Shown here piece after piece: positions 7,416-59,468 of a stretch of 64,000 bases of DNA. Below the pieces are notes generated by a model. That model made no database searches. It was not told the origin of the DNA and saw only the letters and a list, made by a program, of their open reading frames with translations. Source of the stretch: Octopus vulgaris (taxonomy: Eukaryota); NCBI GenBank assembly GCA_951406725.2, contig OX597820.1, positions 36,332,001 to 36,396,000 on the forward strand. The letters run 5' to 3'. The position numbers and the translations under genes were made by a program. Numbering within the stretch: the first letter of the stretch is position 1; the number at the start of each line of letters is the position of its first letter.

Positions 7416-8769
7416 TACAAGGGGCACCCAAAAGAAGCTGGAATTTTGCAATATTGTTTTATTCACTTAGATTTACATGTTTACAATTTTATCACCTTCA
7501 AAGTATTCATCCTCTGAAGCAATGCATCAGTCCAGACCTGTTTTCCACCATTCGAAGCAGTTCTGAAACAGTTGTGAATTGATGCCTTTTTTTTTTTTTC
7601 ACCTCTTCCACATCTACAAAACGCTTTCCTTTAAGAACTTTTTTAATTTGGAGGAACAAAAGATGCTGCAGGGGGCAAGATCAGGTGAATAGGGAGGGTG
7701 GGTAAGTGGAGGTCACGCTATTTTTAGTCAAAAACTGTCACACTCAAGGTGGTGTCCACAGGCAAATTGTTGGGATGAAACCACCACTCTCCACTTTGCA
7801 ACAGGTTGTGGCATTTTCATCTCACCACATCCCGCAAACACTTCAGAACTGCTAAGTAAAATGTCAGCTTAACAGTTTGACCAGGAAGAACAAATTCAGT
7901 GTGGACAATTTCTTTTGCATCAATGAAACAAATGAGCATTGTCTTGACAATGGAATTCACTTGACATGCTGTTTTGGGGCATGGTGGCATTGAATGCTTC
8001 CAGTGACTTGATTGCTGCTTTGTTTCTGGGTTGTAGCCATAGCACCACTTTTCACAACCAGTAATGACTTTTGAATAAAGGTCCAGATCAACATCCAACT
8101 GTTCTTTCAGTTCATGACATGCATTCAGTCATGATTGCTTTTGATCTTCCTTGAGCAAGCGGGGCACAATTTTGCAACCACTCAATTCATTTGCAATTCC
8201 TGACTCAAAATTCATTGGCAGGAGCTCCAGGTCATACCAGTCATATCAACAAGGTCATCAATTGCCTGGCGACAGTCCTCCAAAATCAGTTCATGAATTT
8301 TTGTGATGTTTCCATTCATTCAGGATCAGCAAGTGACAAGTGACCATTCCTAAAGCCTGAAAACCATTTGTAAACTTGTGTTTTGCACATGGCAGCATCC
8401 TTGTAAGTTGTTTGAAGCATGAAAACTGTTTTAGCTGCCGTTTTTCCCAGAAGAAAACAAACAGAATTTCATGGAAGCATGCTGCTTCTTCATTTCAGCC
8501 ATTGAAAAAATCGATGAACAGGGGGAGAAGTACTGCAAAACAAAGACACACCACGTGACAGTACAATTTCACATGATGATGCTAGTTGGCAAACTGATAC
8601 CTGAGGGTCACATCAAGTAGCTTGTAGTGGTGGAAGCCTGAATGTATGTACTATATATATCTATATGTGCATGTGTACATGTATAACACACACATACAGT
8701 CCCACCCACTTAGGATTTCGCTTCAAGAATCTTGAAAGACAAATACAAATATAAATACAAGCATGTACA

Positions 8770-9223: not shown

Positions 9224-9651
9224 TATATGCATATACATTCACAAGTACACACATGTGTATGTGTGTGTGGGGGGGAGTGTGGATGTGAGGGTGTGTGGAT
9301 GTGAGGGTGTGTGGATGTGGGTGGATGTGGATAGGTGTGTGTGTGTGTGTGTGTATTTGTGCTTGTGTCTCCTTGTCTTGATGATAGTTGTAAACATGCA
9401 TCACCATCATACAAGCAGTCATTCATTTCCCACCTTGCATGAAAATATTTCAAATTACAAGGAATATTACTTTCATTGGAAACCAATACGGATCAACAAA
9501 AGGGCAGCTGGTCATTGAGATTATACCACATGGAAAAGCTGACATTAAAGCAATGAATATATATATATTGTATATATATATATATATATATTGTATAGAT
9601 ATATATATATATATACATACAATATATATATAAAGCAATGAATATATATAT

Positions 9652-9682
<31 letters not shown>

Positions 9683-10728
9683 ACCATCTGATCGTGGCCG
9701 TTCGCCCGCCTCATCTGGCACCTGTGTCGTTGGCACATAAAAACACCATCCGAAGACCCGGCAAGACTAGTCAGGCCTAAACCCGTGGCCCCTACCTGGG
9801 ACGTAGTCAGTCCACCTGTGCATACCTTCCTTCTTGTGACACTTGTGAAGACCTGTTGAGGCAAGTGAAAATCAAAACAAATCAAAATAGATGAACATCA
9901 ATGGAATTTGGTACCAGTGCCGGTGGCACACAAGAAAGCCATCCGAACGTGGCCGTAGCCAGTACTGCACCGACTGGCCTCCATGCTGTGGGCACATAAC
10001 AAACACCATCCGATCGTGGCCGTTCGCCAGCCTCATCTGGCACCTGTGTCGGTGGCACATAAAAACACCATCCGAGCGTAGCCGTCTGCCAGCCTCGTCT
10101 GGCACCTGTGTCGGTGGCACATAAAAAACACCATTCGAGCGTGGCCGTGCATACCTTCCTTCCTTCTTGTGACACTTGTGAAGACCTGTGAAGACCTGTT
10201 GAGGCAAGTGAAAATCAAATCAAATCAAATCAAAACAAATCAAAATAGATGAACATCAATGGAATTTGTATCTTTGTGGTACCAGTGCCGGTGGCACACA
10301 AGAAGACCATCCGAACGTGGCGGTAGCCAGTACCGCATCGACTGGCCTCCGTGCTGTGGGCACGTAACAAACACCATCCGATCATGACCGTTCGCCAGCC
10401 TCATCTGGCACCTGTGTCGGTGGCACATAAAAACACCATCCGAGCGTGGCCGTCTGCCAGCCTCGTCTGGCACCTGTGTCGGCACATAAAAAACACCATC
10501 CGAGCGTGGCCGTTTGCCAGCCTCGTCTGGCACCTGTGTCGGTGGCACATAAAATCACCTACTACACTCTCGGAGTGGTTGGCGTTAGGAAGGGCATCCA
10601 GCTGTAGAAACACTGCCAGATCTGACTGGCCTGGTGCAGCCTTCGGGCTCCCCAGACCCCAGTTGAACCGTCCAACCCATGCTAGCATGGAAACCGGACG
10701 TTAAATGATGATGATGATGATGATGATA
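9683..10728 (+). mobile_element. RTE LINE 3'UTR with internal ~61-bp tandem repeats and (GAT)n tail
   Basis: Units caccatccgagcgtggccgtctgccagcctcgtctggcacctgtgtcggtggcacataaaaa are repeated, with a ~330-bp higher-order duplication. Ends with the RTE tail ggttggcgttaggaagggcatccagc...ggacgttaaatgatgatgat. Confidence 0.8.
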
Positions 10729-10862
10729 TATATATATACATACAATATATATATATTCATTGCTTTAATGTCAGCTTTTCCATGTGGTATAATCTCAATG
10801 ACCAGCTGCCCTTTTGCTGATCCATATTGGTTTCCAATGAAAGTAATATTCCTTGTAATTTG

Positions 10863-10898
<36 letters not shown>

Positions 10899-11056: not shown

Positions 11057-11095
<39 letters not shown>

Positions 11096-11856
11096 TAAAT
11101 CTATATATGAGGATAATATCGATATTTAAGTATCAAATTATCAAGTGGCCAGCATGAAAAAAATACCTTACAAAGGTAAAAAATTTTTAACCATTAAAAA
11201 TGAGGGTGTCTAAAAGACACCAACATGCCAAAATAGCAGTCGAAATTCTGACTATAAAACCACGTTAAATGTTCATATCGCACCATGGACTAAAAGTCGG
11301 AGGGGGCAGAGGATAAACTACCTGCATGAACTTGCTATAAAAGCAAGTAGTAATTTTACTTTATCCTTATTCTTAGTGCAAGTTTTAAAGACACCCTCAT
11401 TTTTAATTGTTAAAAATTTTTTACCTTTGTAAGGTATTTTTTTCATGCTGGCCACTTGATAATTTGATACTTAAATATCGATATTATCCTCATATATAAA
11501 TTTATATAATTCGTTATTATATTCACTGCGGTGCTTATTTTAACCATATCGTATTTATGCGGTGATTTGGCGGGCAATTCAAATGGCTGTGTCCATATGT
11601 GCATATGTATGTATGTGCGACGCTCGTGTATGTAAGTATATCTGTATTTATGTACCCTTGATATATTCAATTGATGACGGTAAAGCTTATTTAAAGCAGA
11701 ACCAGAAATCCTTGGATCTTGAATTATTCAATAATTTTTGCTTGTATGTTTTGTCCCTCCGCTTTACCTCATGGTGCGATATGAACATTTAACGTGGTTT
11801 TATAGTCAGAATTTCGACTGCTATTTCGGCATGTTGGTGTCTTTTAGACACCCTCA

Positions 11857-11863
<7 letters not shown>
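10900..11863. mobile_element. Penelope-like/retrozyme-like composite: 457-nt hammerhead-containing unit (11391-11863), an inverted partial copy (11102-11287) and a Penelope-type AT-rich piece (10905-11040)
   Basis: acaccctcatttttaat occurs at 11391 and 11848. 11102-11287 is the reverse complement of unit end joined to unit start. 10905-10960 (gagataaaaccactattaggcaaatcaaacagtga) matches 28263-28300. The block is bounded by (TA)n. Confidence 0.65.
11665..11724 (+). ncRNA. Minimal type I hammerhead ribozyme fold (C3U variant, probably decayed)
   Basis: Stem I attcaa(11665-70)/ttgaat(11719-24); core TTGATGA (11671-77, consensus CUGANGA); stem II ggt..gctt-attta-aagc..acc; GAAA (11705-08); short stem III tcc-tt-gga; cleavage triplet AUC (11716-18). 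Confidence 0.65.
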
Positions 11864-11906
<43 letters not shown>

Positions 11907-12224
11907 AATAATATATATATATACATATATATATGTACATACCTACATATATATGTATATATACATGCATATATGGGTACAAGACGTCAATAAAACATGA
12001 ACAAAATGAAGTACCCATATATGCATATATGTATACATATATATGTAGGTATGTACATATATGTATGTATATATGCATTATTATATGTATATATATATAT
12101 ATCATCATACTTGGAAATGGATGCGTGGCGTTCAATAATATAATAATATAAATAATATACATATATGTGTGTGCGTGTATTATTTATATTATTATATGAT
12201 CGAATGCTATGCATCCATTTCCAA

Positions 12225-12297
<73 letters not shown>

Positions 12298-12298
<1 letters not shown>

Positions 12299-13579
12299 TG
12301 GATCATCCCATAAATAATGCGGTTTTTTCAATTGAATGGACTAAAAGTCGGAGGGGGAAGGGGATAAACTACCTGCATGAACTTGCTATAAAAGCAAGTA
12401 GTAATTTTACTTTATCCTTATTCTTAGTGCAAGTTTTAAAGAGTGCAGTTCAATTTGATTTTAACAGTTATTTTTTCAAAGCTATAATGGAAGTGGCAAA
12501 GGAGCATATTTTGCTTTGTGAGTTCAATAAAGGCAATAACGCAATGGAAAGTGTGAGGAATATAAATGCAGTGTATGGGGATCAGACAATAAGCATAAAC
12601 CAGTCTCAACAGTGGTTCCAGAAATTCTGAGCCAGAAACTACAGCCTAGAAGACGAACCGTGTCATGGAAGATCTGTAGCAATCAATGAAGATGTCTGCA
12701 AACCCTGATGGAAAAAAATTCCAGCATAGCTGTTGATGAACTAGCAGAGAATCTTGGATTTGGTCATTCAATCTTTCATCAACACCTGTATACCATCAGA
12801 AAAGTCAGCAAATTGGGTCGATGGGTTCCTCACACATTTTCCAAGTCTAATCGCACACAGAGAGAATGTGTGCTCTTCTTTGCTGTCATGTCTCATGAAT
12901 GAACCCTTTTTGAACTGAATAGTGACTAGTGATGAGAAATAGGTTCTCTATAAAAATGTCAAGCACTGAAAACAGTAGGTAGGGAAAGGAAAAACACCGG
13001 CACCCCGGGCTAAAGAAGGTCTTCACCCATGTAAGGTGTTGCTATCTGTTTGGTGGGATATGAAAGGTTTAATCCGCTTTGAGCTTTTAAACCCAAACCA
13101 TATGATAACAAAGGAGATCTACTGTGAGCAGCTTGAGTGGCTTAAGTCCGCACTAGAAGAAAATGACAATCTTTGGTTTCAAAATGAAAGGTGTTCTTCC
13201 ATCAGGATAATGCTTGGTCACATTCAGAGAGGATGACGTTTGAAAGTCTGGAGCAGTTTCAATGCAAAACGATGCTCCATCCACCATATTCACTGGACAT
13301 TGCCCCATCTGATTAGCATTTATTTTGTAGTCTACAAAATTATTTGGATGGAAAAAAATATGAATTCTGTAGACAAGGTCAGAACAGTATTGGAAGAGTA
13401 TTTTTAATCATGGACAAGTGAATTTTAGAAGAGGGGCCTTACAAGTCTGCTAGATAGACAGAAGAGTATTGTAGAAAATGAAAGAGAGTATATTTTAGAT
13501 TAAAAAAGAACTCTGTTAATATTAATTTTGAAAGATAAACGAAGTATAAAAAAAATGTGTTATCTTTGGGATGACCCAA
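12298..13579 (+). mobile_element. Full-length (1282 bp) decayed mariner transposon
   Basis: TA-flanked TIRs ttggatcatcccataaataatgc / ttatctttgggatgacccaa. Transposase motifs GRWVPH, VTSDEK, LLSVWWDMKGLI.FELL, HPPYSLDIAPSD are present, with several stops and frameshifts. Confidence 0.92.
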
Positions 13580-31540: not shown

Positions 31541-31847
31541 TATATATATATATATATATATATTGCAACATCATACCTTGTTTTGTTGAACCATTTCTTA
31601 TATTTTATGAGTGATGAAATAGCAAAATCAGGAGAGTACTTGATTAAATGCCTTGCAGTATTAAGTTAAAGCTGTTCTGAGTTCAATTCCTGCCAAAATC
31701 AAATTTCTTTCATCATCATCATCATCATCGTTTCATGTATTGATTAAATAAATACCAGTCATATATGGATGGAGAGTGTAGATATAATTGACTGTTCTCA
31801 TCCTCAAACTTTTTCATGTCATAATGTCAGTTCTCTCTCTGTTTCAG

Positions 31848-32335
31848 TGATCTCCCTTGTCACAGCCAACAGACAATCCGATGGTCGGAATCCATCGCGG
31901 TACAATGAACTTGGAGGACGTGACCGTTCAGATGACAGAAGTCGAATGAGTAACACACATGATGACAGAGATCGAAGAGGCAATGCACGAGATGATCGTG
32001 GCGATCGTGGTGATCGAGTTGACCGAGACCGAGACCGAGACCGAGACCGTGGGAGCCGTGATGACCGTCATGATCGCATGGATCACAGTGACATGGATGA
32101 CCACAACGACCGTGACATTGTCTATAACTCCATTGTCAATCCCAATGAGCGTGGCATCAGCCATAGTCCAGATGATGGTCATAACCATGGATATACTCAT
32201 AACTCTGACCATGAGGACAACACCCGGGCCAACAAACATGGTAAGGAGAATGGTGGTGCTTCAATTGGATCCCAACTCTCTTGGTTCCAAAGGATTGTGT
32301 TGGCTGGAACATCACTACTGATGGTTGTTATGTAA
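31848..32335 (+). CDS. Orphan secreted/GPI-anchored RD/H-rich protein, terminal coding exon
   Basis: Acceptor ttctctctctgtttcAG| at 31847; a 488-nt stop-free, GC- and CpG-rich frame in an AT-rich background. Encodes ISLVTA-NRQSDGR...RDDRGDRGDRVDRDRDRDRDR...HSPDDGHNHGYTHNSDHED...ENGGASIGSQLSWFQRIVLAGTSLLMVVM*. Confidence 0.8.
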
Positions 32336-53776: not shown

Positions 53777-54099
53777 GTAAGAATTAATTTCAGTAATTTC
53801 ATTTTCACATCTAGAATAACATGTGTGTGAGTAAAGTTGTCAGGCAAGCTTGAGGATCCAAAATTTCCTAGATTACTATAAAAGACCTCCTTCAGTCATG
53901 AATGACCATAAGATTGTTCCTAGAAAGTTCCCCTCCTACAAGTTTGGGTAAGTTTATTTGTGGAAAACCAGTCGTTGTCCATGCATACCAGCCTCCCCTC
54001 TCTGTGCCACCAGTGTTGTCTAAGGGAAAAGCAAAAGCTGATACAGGCAACTCATTTCTACAGCTACATGAACTGGAATGTCACTGGTGTCAAGCTATA

Positions 54100-55466
54100 T
54101 CAGTCTTTGCCATTCCCTTGGACAACATCGATGGTATCGGATGGTGTGGGTTATGGCCTTGTCACCTGCATCATAAATCAGGTAGTTCATGAAGGAGTCA
54201 TACCCAATGCCTGGTGTAGCAGCACCATAGTCAACTGCTATAAGGGTAAATGTGATGCTTTAGATACAAGTAACTACAGGGGTATCAAATTATTGGATCA
54301 GGTGATGAAAGTTACAGGGAGGCTCATAGCCCAACTAATTAGGGAGAGAGTTAGCCTAGATGAGATGCAGTTTGGTTTTGTGTCAGGCAGAAGCACCACT
54401 GATGCTATATTTCTGGTAAGGCAACTGCAGGAGAAATATCTAGCCAAAGATAAACCTCTGTACTTGGCTTTTGTTTACTTGGAGAAAGCCTTTGACAAGG
54501 TCCCCCAATCCCTTATCTGGTGGTCAATGCAGAAACTGGGGATAGACGAGTGGTTGGTAAGAGCTGTACAGGGATGCTGTCAGTAAGGTGAGGGTTGGCA
54601 ATGAGTACAGTGAAGAATACCAAGTAGAAGTAGGAGTTTCCCAAGGATCAGTCCTCAGCCCCCTCTTATTCATTATAGTCCTCCAGGCAATAACAGAGGA
54701 ATTCAAGACAGGCTGCCCCTGGGAACTTCTTTATGCTGATGACCTTGCTCTAATAGCCAAGTTACTGCCAGACCTAGAGACAAAGTTTAGGGTGTGGAGG
54801 CAAGGTATAGAATCGAAGGGCCTTAGGGTTAACCTAGCAAAAACCAAAGTCTTAGTTAGTGAGAAAGCTGTCAAATCACAAACCCCTTCAGTTAGATGGC
54901 CCTGCTCGATCTGTAGAAATGGCGAGGATAGAAACTCCATACGATGTACCTGGTGTAAGCTATGGACACATAAAAGGTGCAGCAATATCAAAGGAAGGTT
55001 AACCGGAAAGACAGTTTTTGTGTATGACAGATGCACAGGGTCAATAAACACTGAAGATTCCATTACATGCCAGGGGGAGAAACTAGAAGTAGTTGATAGC
55101 TTCCGCTACCTAGGTGACCAAGTCTGTTGTTGGGGTGGTTGCTCTGAGAGTGTAGTGGATAGAATAAGAATAGCCTGGGCAAATTTCAGGGAGCTCCTAC
55201 CTCTGCTGGCAACTAAGAGCCTCTCACTCAGGATGAAGGGTAGACTGTATGATGCATGTGTATGAACTGCCATGCTACATGGCAGAGAAAGATAGGCCAT
55301 GACTGCTGAGGACATGCATAGGCTTGAAAGAAATGAAGCGAGTATGATCCGCTGGTTGTGTAATGTCACTGCATACACAACAGAGTGTAAGCGCTCTGAG
55401 AGAAGAGTTGGGCATAAGAAGCATCAAATGTGGTGGACAAGCGAGACGACTGCGCTGATATGGTTC
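54100..55466 (+). mobile_element. RTE LINE RT region (few disablements) in MRPL55 intron 2
   Basis: YKGK.DALD.SNYRGIKLL, QFGF..GRSTTDAIF..RQLQEK, AFV.LEKAFD, GVSQGSVLSPLLF, LLYADD, FRYLGD. Confidence 0.95.
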
Positions 55467-55479
55467 TGGGTGATATTAA

Positions 55480-58400
55480 GAACTCTTTAGATGTAATCAT
55501 ATACTGTCATAATGGACATGTTCAGCAAATAAACTCTGTCCATTGATCATACAATCCACTGCATTATGTTCTGCTGCCACTGAAGGGAACAGGCGGTTGG
55601 CAACTCAATATGAAGAAATCAAATGAACAAACATTAACAGCTATGAATTTTTATGCTTACCAACTGCAGGTAAGAACTAATTATGTGAAATAGAAGACTT
55701 TTACAGTAATATGATGTAGAACAGTGGGTGAAAGTAGTACGGAGCAGGCTAAGGTGCCAGAAAACACTCAGGGTTGCTTGATCCTGTCAACCAAACTAAT
55801 ACAGTAAAACCAGGAAGAAGAATTATTCTCCCACCAACCATCACCTGTAGTCCAAGATTTTACAGTGAGGCCTTCCAAAACACCATGGTAATACTGGGAG
55901 CAATGGGAAAACCAGATTACTTCATCACATTTACGACAAATCCAAAATGGACAGAGATACAGACCACCTTATTTCCAGGGGAGCATGCACAGGACTGACC
56001 TGATATTCCTGCCGAGTATTCAAAATCAAGTTCAACACATTTCTCCATGATCTACTGAAAAAACACTTTCTGGAAAAAGTTAATACCTATACACTAATGA
56101 TTGAATGGCAAAAACGTGGCCTTACACATACATTTATAATGGTTAATTGTCTTAAACCAACTTCCAGAAATCATAGACAAAGTAGTTAGTGCCAAAATAC
56201 CCAACAAAGACCGCATCCCAGAGCTATCCAACTCAGTAATAGCACATAATGTTCATGGTCAATGCAGTGCTATCAACCTCCAAAGTCCATTTATGGAAAC
56301 CAGGTGAGATGGAGCTCGATGTACTAAGGAGTTTCTGAAACCCTTCGAGTCAGCCACCTATACATCAAGAAATAGCTACTTGACGTATCACAGAAGAAGT
56401 CTAGCATATAGTGGAAGAACCAATAAAATTTACGTTAAGGGTCAGACAGATTTTGTGGTAAGATTTTTCTTCAACTTATACTGACAAATTTTTGATATAG
56501 AAAATTTATCATTATGTTTCAAATCTCATAATTTTAAGTCCAATTTTAACAAACCCATATCAACTGGTTCTGGCTTTACACTCAACTGCATCTACCAAAA
56601 CCATGTCCATGGACAAATATAGCAATATATACTATTTACTTACGTTTAATATTTTCTTCGCAGGTTGACAATTCTTGGATAGACCATACAATCTGTATCT
56701 GACAATTAAATACTACACCCACATCAGCATCGAGGTCGTACATACCATCCAAGCAGTAAAGTACTTATACAAATACATTACAAAAGGGCAAGATCGAATC
56801 ATCTTAACATCGGAAACAGGACAGCCAATTCCCGTATTAAACGATAAAGAAAACTTGATAAATGCTTCATACATCTCTGCAAGTGAAGCATTCTGGAAGT
56901 TGTATGAATTTTTCATACACCAAAAGCATCATGCAGTTGAAAAGCTACTCTGTCGTTTACCTGATGAACAGACTGTACAATTCGACCCGACTTCTGTCGC
57001 TGTGGTTGTGGAATGTAGACCATCGATAACTAAATTGACAGCTTATTTTCAAACAAACAAACTTGACGAAAAAGCTCGAGAGATTTTATACCCAGATTTT
57101 CCTAAATATTTCACCTGGAACAATAAAACCAAGTCGTGACAAAAATGAAAACGAGGTACAACCGATGATAATGGTGATGTTAAAACTGAGACTATCAAAC
57201 AAATCCCAACCATATCATATAGTGCTCATCAGAGTCAGAACTGTTTCACCTTCAGATACTCCTTCACCATATTAAAGGTGCAACTAGCTTTGATGAACTG
57301 AAGACTGGAGGGAAATGTATGTTCAACATTTCAGCAATCATGCATGAAAACTGGACTGATATTGGACGACCAAGAAATACACTGTGCAATGGAGGAAGCA
57401 GCCAGTGTTTGCTTTGGAGATTCACTGCATGACTTCTTCACTGACATGTTAATTTACTGCCGGCTGCTTGATCTGATGAACTTTTGGGGAGAGTGTAAAA
57501 CGAGACTTCATGCAAAGAAACAACATTGGAGGTCTTACCCCTCGCATTGAAAATGAAATATTGATTCGTCTGCAGGAGCAACTTCAAAGGGATGAACTTG
57601 ACCTAGTTTGAGATTTCCAGCTTCCTCAACCTGAATATAACGAAACCAGTCAATTGATGCCAAAGATTATTACAGACTGTCTTCGAATAGTGTCTACTGA
57701 CATTTACAATACTCTGACCAGAAGCACGTTTTTGATATGGTTGTAAACTCAGTTTTACAACAGGAAAACAAGGTTTTCACCTTGAGTGCAAATGGTCGAA
57801 CTGGCAAAACATATCTTATCAATGCAATCATGGATTTTCTACATTTGGAGAAAAAAATCATACTCACTACAGCTCTATCTGGGATTGCGGCAACATTGCT
57901 GCACAATGGCCGGACATTTTATTCTCAGTTCAAAGTACCCATAAACATAACACCAGGGTTCTGCTGCAATGTGTCATCTCAGGATGCAACTACACAACTC
58001 TTCAGAATGACCTGTCTAATAATAGTTGATGAAGTCAGCCAAGGCAACAAGCTCATACAACTGCTTGGATCATTCCCTATGTGATATCAGAGCGAACAAA
58101 TCCCTGTTTGGAGGAGTATGTGTTATTTTTTTTTAGGTGACTGATAGATTCTACTGGTTATTAAACGTGGTAGTCAAGCTCAAATAGTGCAAACCACCTT
58201 GAAAACATCGTACATCTGGAGGTCTGTGACGGAGTTGAGTCTAAAGAAAAACATGAGGGTACGGAATTCTTCATATACAACTTTCGCAACTTGTTGGTTA
58301 CAAGATTGGTTCAAGACAATGCTCGTTCTCTGAGCCACTGAGGAATGTGATTCAAATTAGGCCAGATCTTATACTCAAAATATCATCTATTTCTGAATTA

Positions 58401-59468
58401 TGCAAATTCGTCTTTAATGATTTAAGTGAAAACTACAAAAACACATCATGGTTGTGTTCACAAGCTGTCATCGCCTCAACCAATGAAGTAATAAACAGTG
58501 TGAATGAGCACCTGGTTAGCAACTTCTCTGGAGTAAATCAAGAGTACTGTAGTTCAAATACAATAGATGACGGAAACTACCACCAGTACCCACAGGATTT
58601 CTGAACAACTTAAATCCATTGGGATTGCCAGTCTATAAAATCAAATTGAAAAAGAACTGTGAAATAATGCTCTTTAGGAATTTCGATCCAGCCAATGGAC
58701 ACTTCAATGAAACAAGATACATGGTAACTGGACTAAATTCCAGTGTTATCAAAGCAGTGATTGCAACTGGCCCACACAATGGTAAACGCTTGTTCTTTCA
58801 ATGGATACTGTTTACACCAACCAATAACCAGTTTCTGTTCCTATTAAGACGCAGGCACTTTCCTATAAAACCGGCATTCTCATTCGCAGCAAACAAGGCA
58901 CAGTGCCAGACTTTAGATTGTGTTGGTGTATTTTACCCACTCCAATGTTTACACACGTCCAGTTATACCTCACTATGAGTAGAGCAATGGACTCGAGTAA
59001 TTTGAAAATTAGTGTCAACCAAGCAGAAAGTATTCATCTACAAAGAAGTTTTGACTATATTGTATAATTCACAATTTTAATAAGGAAGTTTGTGAACTTT
59101 GAATGTGTAAGAGTATAAACAAGCATAAAATAGTGCAAACAGCTAAAATAAAAGTATATCTAAATAACATTTTTTCTTAATGCTTTTTTATGCAGTGGTT
59201 GAAGGAAGCTCTGATTTTCATTAGGAGTGGTCCACATAACCATTCATGATACAGAGGCTGGGAGCCTATTTCAGTTTGGGAGTGAATCGTTATCACATGT
59301 CACTTAGTTGCAAACACATGTCATATAGCTGCAATAGAATGCTGTATCACCAACAATAATGTGCTTTCTCTAAGACATCACCCAGTAATCTATCAAATCC
59401 ATTTGCACATTTTTCAATACATCCTGCTGTTATGATTTGCCTCCATCATAGATGGGTAGATTTACTAG
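55480..59468 (+). mobile_element. Decayed autonomous Helitron (Rep-PIF1 helicase), 5'-truncated, in MRPL55 intron 2
   Basis: Rep motifs GKPDYFITFTTNPKW, IEWQKRGLTH, KYLYKYITKG. PIF1 motifs GRTGKTYLIN, ATLL.NGRT, LIIVDEVS, KNMRV, FPIKPAF..AANKAQCQTL. 3' hairpin ccatc-ata-gatgg and CTAG|T at 59465-59468. Confidence 0.92.

Follow-up and report, generated by a model that had tools for sequence, protein, structure and literature searches.

Hammerhead ribozymes with a short stem III have reportedly been described in Penelope elements, in a paper of 2017. Non-LTR retrozymes are known from coral, mussel and axolotl (PMC7229834). A preprint of 2026 makes the case that they derive from Penelope elements and lack autonomy, and in it eight of nine predicted Xenopus retrozyme dimers remained uncut in vitro (bioRxiv 10.64898/2026.07.22.740005). 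Most Penelope hammerheads are single motifs in truncated copies, and it has been proposed that they make circular templates (PMC4209133). Insertions of Penelope-like elements leave a footprint comprising a head-to-head inverted copy, an optional tail and an AT-microsatellite target (PMC8557442, PMC3846280), and rotifer Penelopes are described as capturing host DNA and as being joined through microhomology (PMC3846280). The Naiads of Octopus target (TA)n, and Naiads spread without canonical hammerheads (PMC8557442). In vitro, an anole element nicks AT-rich DNA and begins reverse transcription internally, at two sites that lie downstream of its hammerhead, and insertion of its hammerhead mutants was unimpaired in vitro (PMC11167929). 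The role proposed for the hammerhead in Penelope-like elements and retrozymes, the supply of circular templates (PMC4209133), thus stands beside its dispensability for insertion in vitro (PMC11167929). For cephalopods, no paper on retrozymes was found as judged by title or the start of the abstract, and the word 'ribozyme' is absent from the main text of a 2026 repeat annotation of Octopus vulgaris (PMC13282606).

The locus described here lies in a 64,000-nt stretch of Octopus vulgaris DNA (the window), where two (TA)n tracts enclose an inverted partial copy, a 107-nt spacer and a main copy of a short unit. Its features in window coordinates are as follows.

11060-11091 (start approximate), no strand: (TA)n sequence, left flank of the target
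11092-11287, minus strand: inverted partial copy of 196 nt, corresponding to unit positions 11770-11847 and then 11391-11508
11285-11391, plus strand: spacer of 107 nt, a copy of 12336-12442 (105 of 107 identical)
11389-11864, plus strand: main copy, one 457-nt unit plus 19 nt
11389-11407, plus strand: first copy of the 19-nt terminal redundancy, the second being 11846-11864 at a spacing of 457
11545-11783, plus strand: predicted long-range helix of 30 pairs (11545-11581 with 11747-11783) that encloses the hammerhead domain
11665-11724, plus strand: type I hammerhead-like motif with a near-palindromic short stem III
11865-11900, no strand: (TA)n sequence, right flank of the target
12336-12442, plus strand: likely spacer donor, directly upstream of a broken mariner-type transposase fragment

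The main copy begins and ends with the same 19 nt, which bears out the terminal direct repeat at 457 spacing that a sequence-only reading of this DNA had reported. The inverted copy, slightly longer than that reading had it, was 193/196 identical to the main copy and ran without a gap from the last 78 nt of the unit into the first 118. Because it is gapless over the end-to-start junction, its template crossed that junction, as had been claimed; a tandem transcript or a circle explains such a template equally well. The two copies face each other head to head, each with its 3' end in (TA)n, that of the inverted copy (equivalent to 11508) abutting the repeat, and the inverted copy is without the hammerhead. 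No further copies of the unit were found within the 64-kb window. That the terminal repeat might start with telomeric letters was considered and discarded, such a feature being known from bdelloids and having no support at this locus.

The unit, with 457 nt and a G+C content of 33%, agrees with the non-coding, few-hundred-nucleotide and low-G+C (<45%) character of retrozymes. No ORF was found inside it, and when it was read as a circle the longest stop-free runs were 82 codons on the plus strand and 94 codons on the minus strand. Its length lies within the 51-972 bp range given in the preprint (10.64898/2026.07.22.740005) and exceeds that of the 170-400 nt retrozymes of PMC7229834. As described in the relevant parts of these two sources, metazoan non-LTR retrozymes share with this unit the absence of coding capacity, the low G+C content, the dispersed monomers, one type I hammerhead shape per unit, a strong predicted self-pairing and a likely dependence on Penelope; they differ from it in that the unit has a non-canonical core and, at this locus, no second hammerhead in tandem.

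The spacer between the two copies had been overlooked in the sequence-only reading. The sequence that it matches lies about 1 kb downstream in the same orientation, and its ends overlap the inverted copy (11285-11287) and the main copy (11389-11391) by 3 nt each. On these alignments, the spacer is likely to be captured local DNA that was joined via the 3-nt microhomologies, and the donor is likely to be the local copy at 12336-12442 rather than another member of the mariner family. The divergence of the spacer (2/107) and that of the inverted copy (3/196) would fit a single event. The capture of host DNA as a spacer resembles what is described for Pen1_Av, whereas a spacer between inverted and direct copies with a donor identifiable 1 kb away departs from the Penelope-like footprint as set out in the sources at hand. 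With its likely local donor and its microhomologies, the spacer shows clearly in what way the two parts of such an insertion were brought together.

Several other repeats were observed in the neighborhood. The transposase fragment beside the donor (12445-12627, plus strand) contains HTH_48 (Pfam PF17906, E 1e-14), and the broken mariner-type fragments (HTH_48, Transposase_1) at 12445-12627 (plus strand) and 7820-8128 (minus strand) are the two that were noted. Between the element and the spacer donor lie AT-rich fold-back pairs (11917-11980 with 12011-12074, 95%; 12037-12160 with 12175-12298, 81%), which produce miRNA look-alike matches in Rfam. On the other side of the element and close beside it, a second inverted duplication, a 143-nt inverted repeat with 98% complementarity (9445-9587 and 10726-10868), flanks a 1.1-kb cluster of short tandem repeats with periods of about 62 and 368 nt, a cluster that we take to be SINE-like from its appearance.

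An inverted truncated copy, a tail and an AT-microsatellite target, the marks of a Penelope-type insertion, are all present at the locus. The likeness to the footprint in PMC8557442, PMC3846280 and PMC11167929, as far as it is described there, extends to the inverted 5'-truncated copy placed head to head, the two alternative 3' ends downstream of the hammerhead, the AT-rich or (TA)n target and the microhomology joins. The differences are that the optional tail measures about 100 nt here against 30-40 nt in those elements and that neither a reverse transcriptase nor a GIY-YIG domain is present. The geometry, the flanks and the absent ORF support the earlier proposal of a non-autonomous, non-coding Penelope-type element inserting at (TA)n.

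An ORF with reverse transcriptase and GIY-YIG between pLTRs, which marks an autonomous Penelope-like element, was not found, as the unit contains no ORF. A motif scan of the window for reverse transcriptase and GIY-YIG returned only an RVT_1 fragment near 54.7 kb, 43 kb away. Five unit probes of 11-12 letters were absent from the supplement of PMC8557442, and for a link to Naiads, two shorter probes matched only unrelated places in the passages of that paper. Elsewhere in the window, a reverse transcriptase fragment with RVT_1 occupies 53924-55265 (plus strand), and fragments at 56669-58978 (plus strand) carry a Pif1 helicase 2B domain and would be Helitron-like. A 195-codon open frame at 31748-32335 (plus strand) encodes many Asp, Arg and His residues and has a hydrophobic end; it gave no Pfam match and is possibly a host exon.

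The motif at 11665-11724 has three helices around a core in type I order, and the topology announced by the sequence-only reading could be confirmed pair by pair. Stem I consists of six Watson-Crick pairs, stem II of three pairs plus an inner hairpin of four pairs, and stem III of three pairs. The core occupies 11671-11677, with a U at position 3 facing G8, and is completed by GAAA at 11705-11708; the predicted cut falls after C11718. In dinucleotide shuffles of the unit, a relaxed descriptor of this shape was matched in 1/3000 and a stricter one in 0/3000, both descriptors having been composed after the motif was seen. On both strands of the 64-kb window, the relaxed descriptor gave two matches and the stricter one gave one, both counts including the motif itself, and neither found a better hammerhead elsewhere in the unit or on its minus strand. 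The only other relaxed match, at 54658 on the minus strand, is antisense within the reverse transcriptase fragment, has weak stems and is probably due to chance.

Rfam returned no hammerhead family at E<=10 among 72 and 7 matches, and the matches consisted only of microsatellite-driven miRNA look-alikes, all under their gathering scores. The isolated 71-nt motif stretch folded no better than its shuffles (z -0.19). The hammerhead fold was predicted at -5.2 kcal/mol, which is 3.4 kcal/mol above the predicted minimum of -8.6, with a probability of stem III near 0. The stem III strand paired with that of a second copy was predicted to form a self-duplex of -8.9 kcal/mol, and dimeric activity through such self-pairing of stem III is described in PMC4209133.

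The whole unit RNA is predicted to be highly self-paired, as is characteristic of retrozymes. Compared with shuffles, the plus strand gave z-scores of -5.6 (linear), -5.4 (circular) and -4.0 on repeat, and the minus strand gave -1.3; because 5 of 24 background stretches of the window also reached -4.0 or lower, such a score by itself is not specific. The signal is long-range, as no significant folding was obtained for any of five 150-nt pieces of the unit. In the long-range helix, 28 of the 30 pairs were predicted with a probability above 0.8, and 7 of the 9 variants listed at its paired places preserve the pair. Changes at 11580 and 11748 would jointly turn a C-G pair into U-A, and their shares were similar in two sequencing runs (X1 and X3, introduced below), compared run-wise. 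Of the 40 variants across the unit, 10 disrupt a predicted pair, where the null mean is 12.8; the difference is not significant (P 0.18).

These data bear on the view that the unit is a DNA-level repeat, such as a rolling-circle element, a MITE-like element or a dispersed satellite monomer, and that its likeness to a hammerhead is incidental. The lack of an Rfam hammerhead match is consistent with it, as is the (TA)n context, in which no target duplication is readable. However, the rarity of the motif in shuffles (1/3000), the preference of folding for the same strand as the motif and the fixed 3' ends with head-to-head inversions that match the Penelope footprint argue against a DNA-level origin, which we regard as very improbable.

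The core was compared with the canonical sequence (C3 U4 G5 A6 N7 G8 A9 / G12 A13 A14 A15.1 / U16.1 H17), for which a Watson-Crick pair between 3 and 8 is required in PMC3088659, and it deviated in having U3 with G8. A pair 10.1-11.1 directly adjoining G12 was also not found, this place holding either a C-A mismatch or a G-C pair followed by an extra A11704. The latter appears to be the better parse: C11678 after A9 would be the usual extra base, G11679-C11703 the conserved pair 10.1-11.1, and A11704 an additional base before G12. Parsed as the Penelope hammerheads of PMC4209133 are, the motif is thus left with two real deviations, namely a U3 opposite G8 and an additional A that precedes G12. 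Unexplained core changes are as a rule rejected in PMC3088659, and by that published strict test the motif is not a canonical hammerhead. The same source reports U3-A8 covariation, U-U at 10.1-11.1 and some slow active variants, and neither U3-G8 nor an extra A before G12 occurs in its pertinent passages, section 8 included. Among the papers found, as far as their available text goes, none deals with hammerheads combining C3U and G8A, and one deals with C3U.

The motif shares with the pLTR hammerheads of PMC4209133, as presented in the parts of that paper concerned with structure, the extra base between 9 and 10.1, the G10.1-C11.1 pair, the extended helix II and a short near-palindromic helix III suited to dimers. 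In contrast, the variant described there is U3-A8, where U3 faces G8 here, and the extra A before G12 and the lack of an attached ORF are further differences at this locus.

Part of the unit was present in 20 of 24 listed sequencing runs, which bear five organism labels and one feces label. Four of the 24, all of them contig data and not including the feces-labelled X20 (share 0.13), were analyzed in detail, namely X1, X2 and X4 from one organism (A), X4 being RNA by guess, and X3 from another (B). The four runs gave 948, 837, 1045 and 15 matching contigs, with 177, 192, 340 and 0, respectively, at least 99% alike. Depth over the motif summed to 44,000-604,000 in X1-X3, whereas most of the single contigs listed had about 20-100; the sum does not represent copy number and is read here only as a sign that the family is very abundant and has young members. 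A 23-letter unit probe gave 0 matches in metagenome contigs.

The ends and closure of copies were read from 24 of 285 loose ends and 32 of 2875 pieces that were listed. The end-to-start junction was seen in other copies, running from 11864 to 11418 in X1 and from 11862 to 11444 in X3 with unit-start letters between, and at least four opposite-strand joints occurred in the four runs. In X1, 29 loose ends at 11508 led into (TA)n, as did one X4 contig at 11412, and an X4 contig of 432 nt stopped at 11864, as the window copy does. Relative to the predicted cut, the two preferred copy ends thus lie about 146 and 247 nt downstream. Several records contain about 22 nt at 11636 that are absent from the window copy, so the family unit is probably near 480 nt in length. 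As for tandem units, this locus has one hammerhead, and no listed contig piece spans two.

Position 11508 was bridged in 3 of the 32 listed records, from two runs, under a rule of 31 letters, and three more records cross it with 24-25 letters on the short side. Two of the three bridging records have 9-11 other letters and therefore represent other copies. Since these records bridge 11508, the tail leads back into the unit in those copies and no ORF lies there. This bears on the explanation by which an autonomous Penelope-like element left truncated ends (pLTR plus tail) as copies and this locus arose by a one-off rearrangement. Such an explanation would agree with the single hammerheads in truncated copies reported as the usual case in PMC4209133, and also with the depth in X1, which peaks at 11470-11503 and 11759-11809, with loose ends near 11800 leading into different sequence; these two blocks seem to be common to several repeat families. 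However, besides the bridging records, the tail of the main copy itself (11408-11508) continues into the region preceding the hammerhead without an ORF, and truncated ends are in our view improbable. The possibility raised by the sequence-only reading that copies are ORF-attached Penelope ends receives little support from the bridging records, although a minority of copies may be linked to an ORF, and the unit is likely, judging from its copies, to be a retrozyme-like, non-autonomous Penelope-type element rather than the broken-off tail of a coding element.

That reading had left the choice between retrozyme and pLTR undecided. Closure of the unit and the lack of an ORF, in the window copy as in other copies, tip the balance toward a retrozyme. 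The element works like one, but as two defining features of the hammerhead were looked for and not found, it is not counted as a retrozyme member.

The state of the core across the family was assessed from changes of at least 8% in contigs at least 82% alike in the four runs, which gave 40 listed variants in the unit up to 11815. Among these variants, none affected 11671, 11678 or 11704 in any of the four runs, no indel occurred there, and a T-to-C change of at least 8% at 11671 was not among them. As no such change is listed at the three positions, most contigs at least 82% alike probably have U3 and the extra A. The sequence-only reading had taken C3U and a mismatch at the end of stem II as possible inactivating defects of this copy, a view that the four runs do not bear out, and private decay of the core was rejected as the main reading, the variants listed leaving 11671, 11678 and 11704 untouched.

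The variants listed within the motif were loop substitutions at 11691 and 11699, changes at 11701 and 11703 that yield G-U pairs in stem II, and the loss of one base at 11713 in loop 3; in the 432-nt X4 contig, all five listed substitutions lie upstream of the motif. None of the 29 places in the core, stem I and stem III carried a listed variant, which is not significant (P about 0.06-0.08). The motif changes fit a conserved fold, if weakly, and no two-sided compensatory change within one molecule was seen.

These observations can also be explained if the unit is the same Penelope passenger but carries a dead hammerhead, a relic already fixed in its founder; the template would then be an uncut tandem or read-through RNA, and no circle would form. 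Two core defects that appear to be the majority state would be expected of such a relic, the active fold is disfavoured, and the conservation of the core is not significant; furthermore, the in vitro insertion by hammerhead mutants of the anole element (PMC11167929) and the spread of Naiads without canonical hammerheads (PMC8557442) speak for it as well. On the other hand, the five listed motif changes all avoid the core and the pairs of stem I and stem III, both of these pairings are intact, and some natural core variants cut slowly (PMC3088659, section 8). A dead relic is a real possibility, though a minority one.

The explanation that we prefer, with about even confidence, is that the unit is a non-coding passenger, some 460-480 nt long, of an endonuclease-bearing Penelope-like element, and that its hammerhead, as modeled, would cut weakly and as a dimer. 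The plus strand would be transcribed as an RNA longer than one unit, in which two hammerheads could pair via the near-palindromic stem III and cut slowly, and the monomers might then close into circles. A Penelope-type GIY-YIG/RT protein would nick (TA)n, and reverse transcription would start inside the RNA at either preferred site, so that the cDNA crosses the junction. At this locus, two cDNAs of 476 and 196 nt would have started from the two sides of the target and been joined through 107 nt copied from nearby DNA via the 3-nt microhomologies.

The class of element is known, and the odd core that appears to prevail in the family is the point worth a bench test. It is unlikely that a high-copy family with a U-G wobble at 3-8 and an extra helix II junction base on each side still cuts as a dimer; if it does, its core would be a naturally occurring active variant that current descriptors and Rfam models miss, self-cleaving elements would be more numerous in animal genomes than present counts suggest, and the core consensus would widen. 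If the odd core does not cut, the family would represent a natural Penelope-driven spread without cleavage, and cleavage would be unneeded for spread in vivo. Having amplified with two core deviations, the family offers an inexpensive test, whichever way the result falls.

As a minor observation, the plus strand of the unit contains one 6-letter word three times, at 11395, 11488 and 11767, against 0.23 per kb in the window. Two of these occurrences precede the two preferred copy ends by 7-15 nt, and the third falls in a high-depth block that other repeats seem to share; the word, noticed post hoc, is a possible recognition signal.
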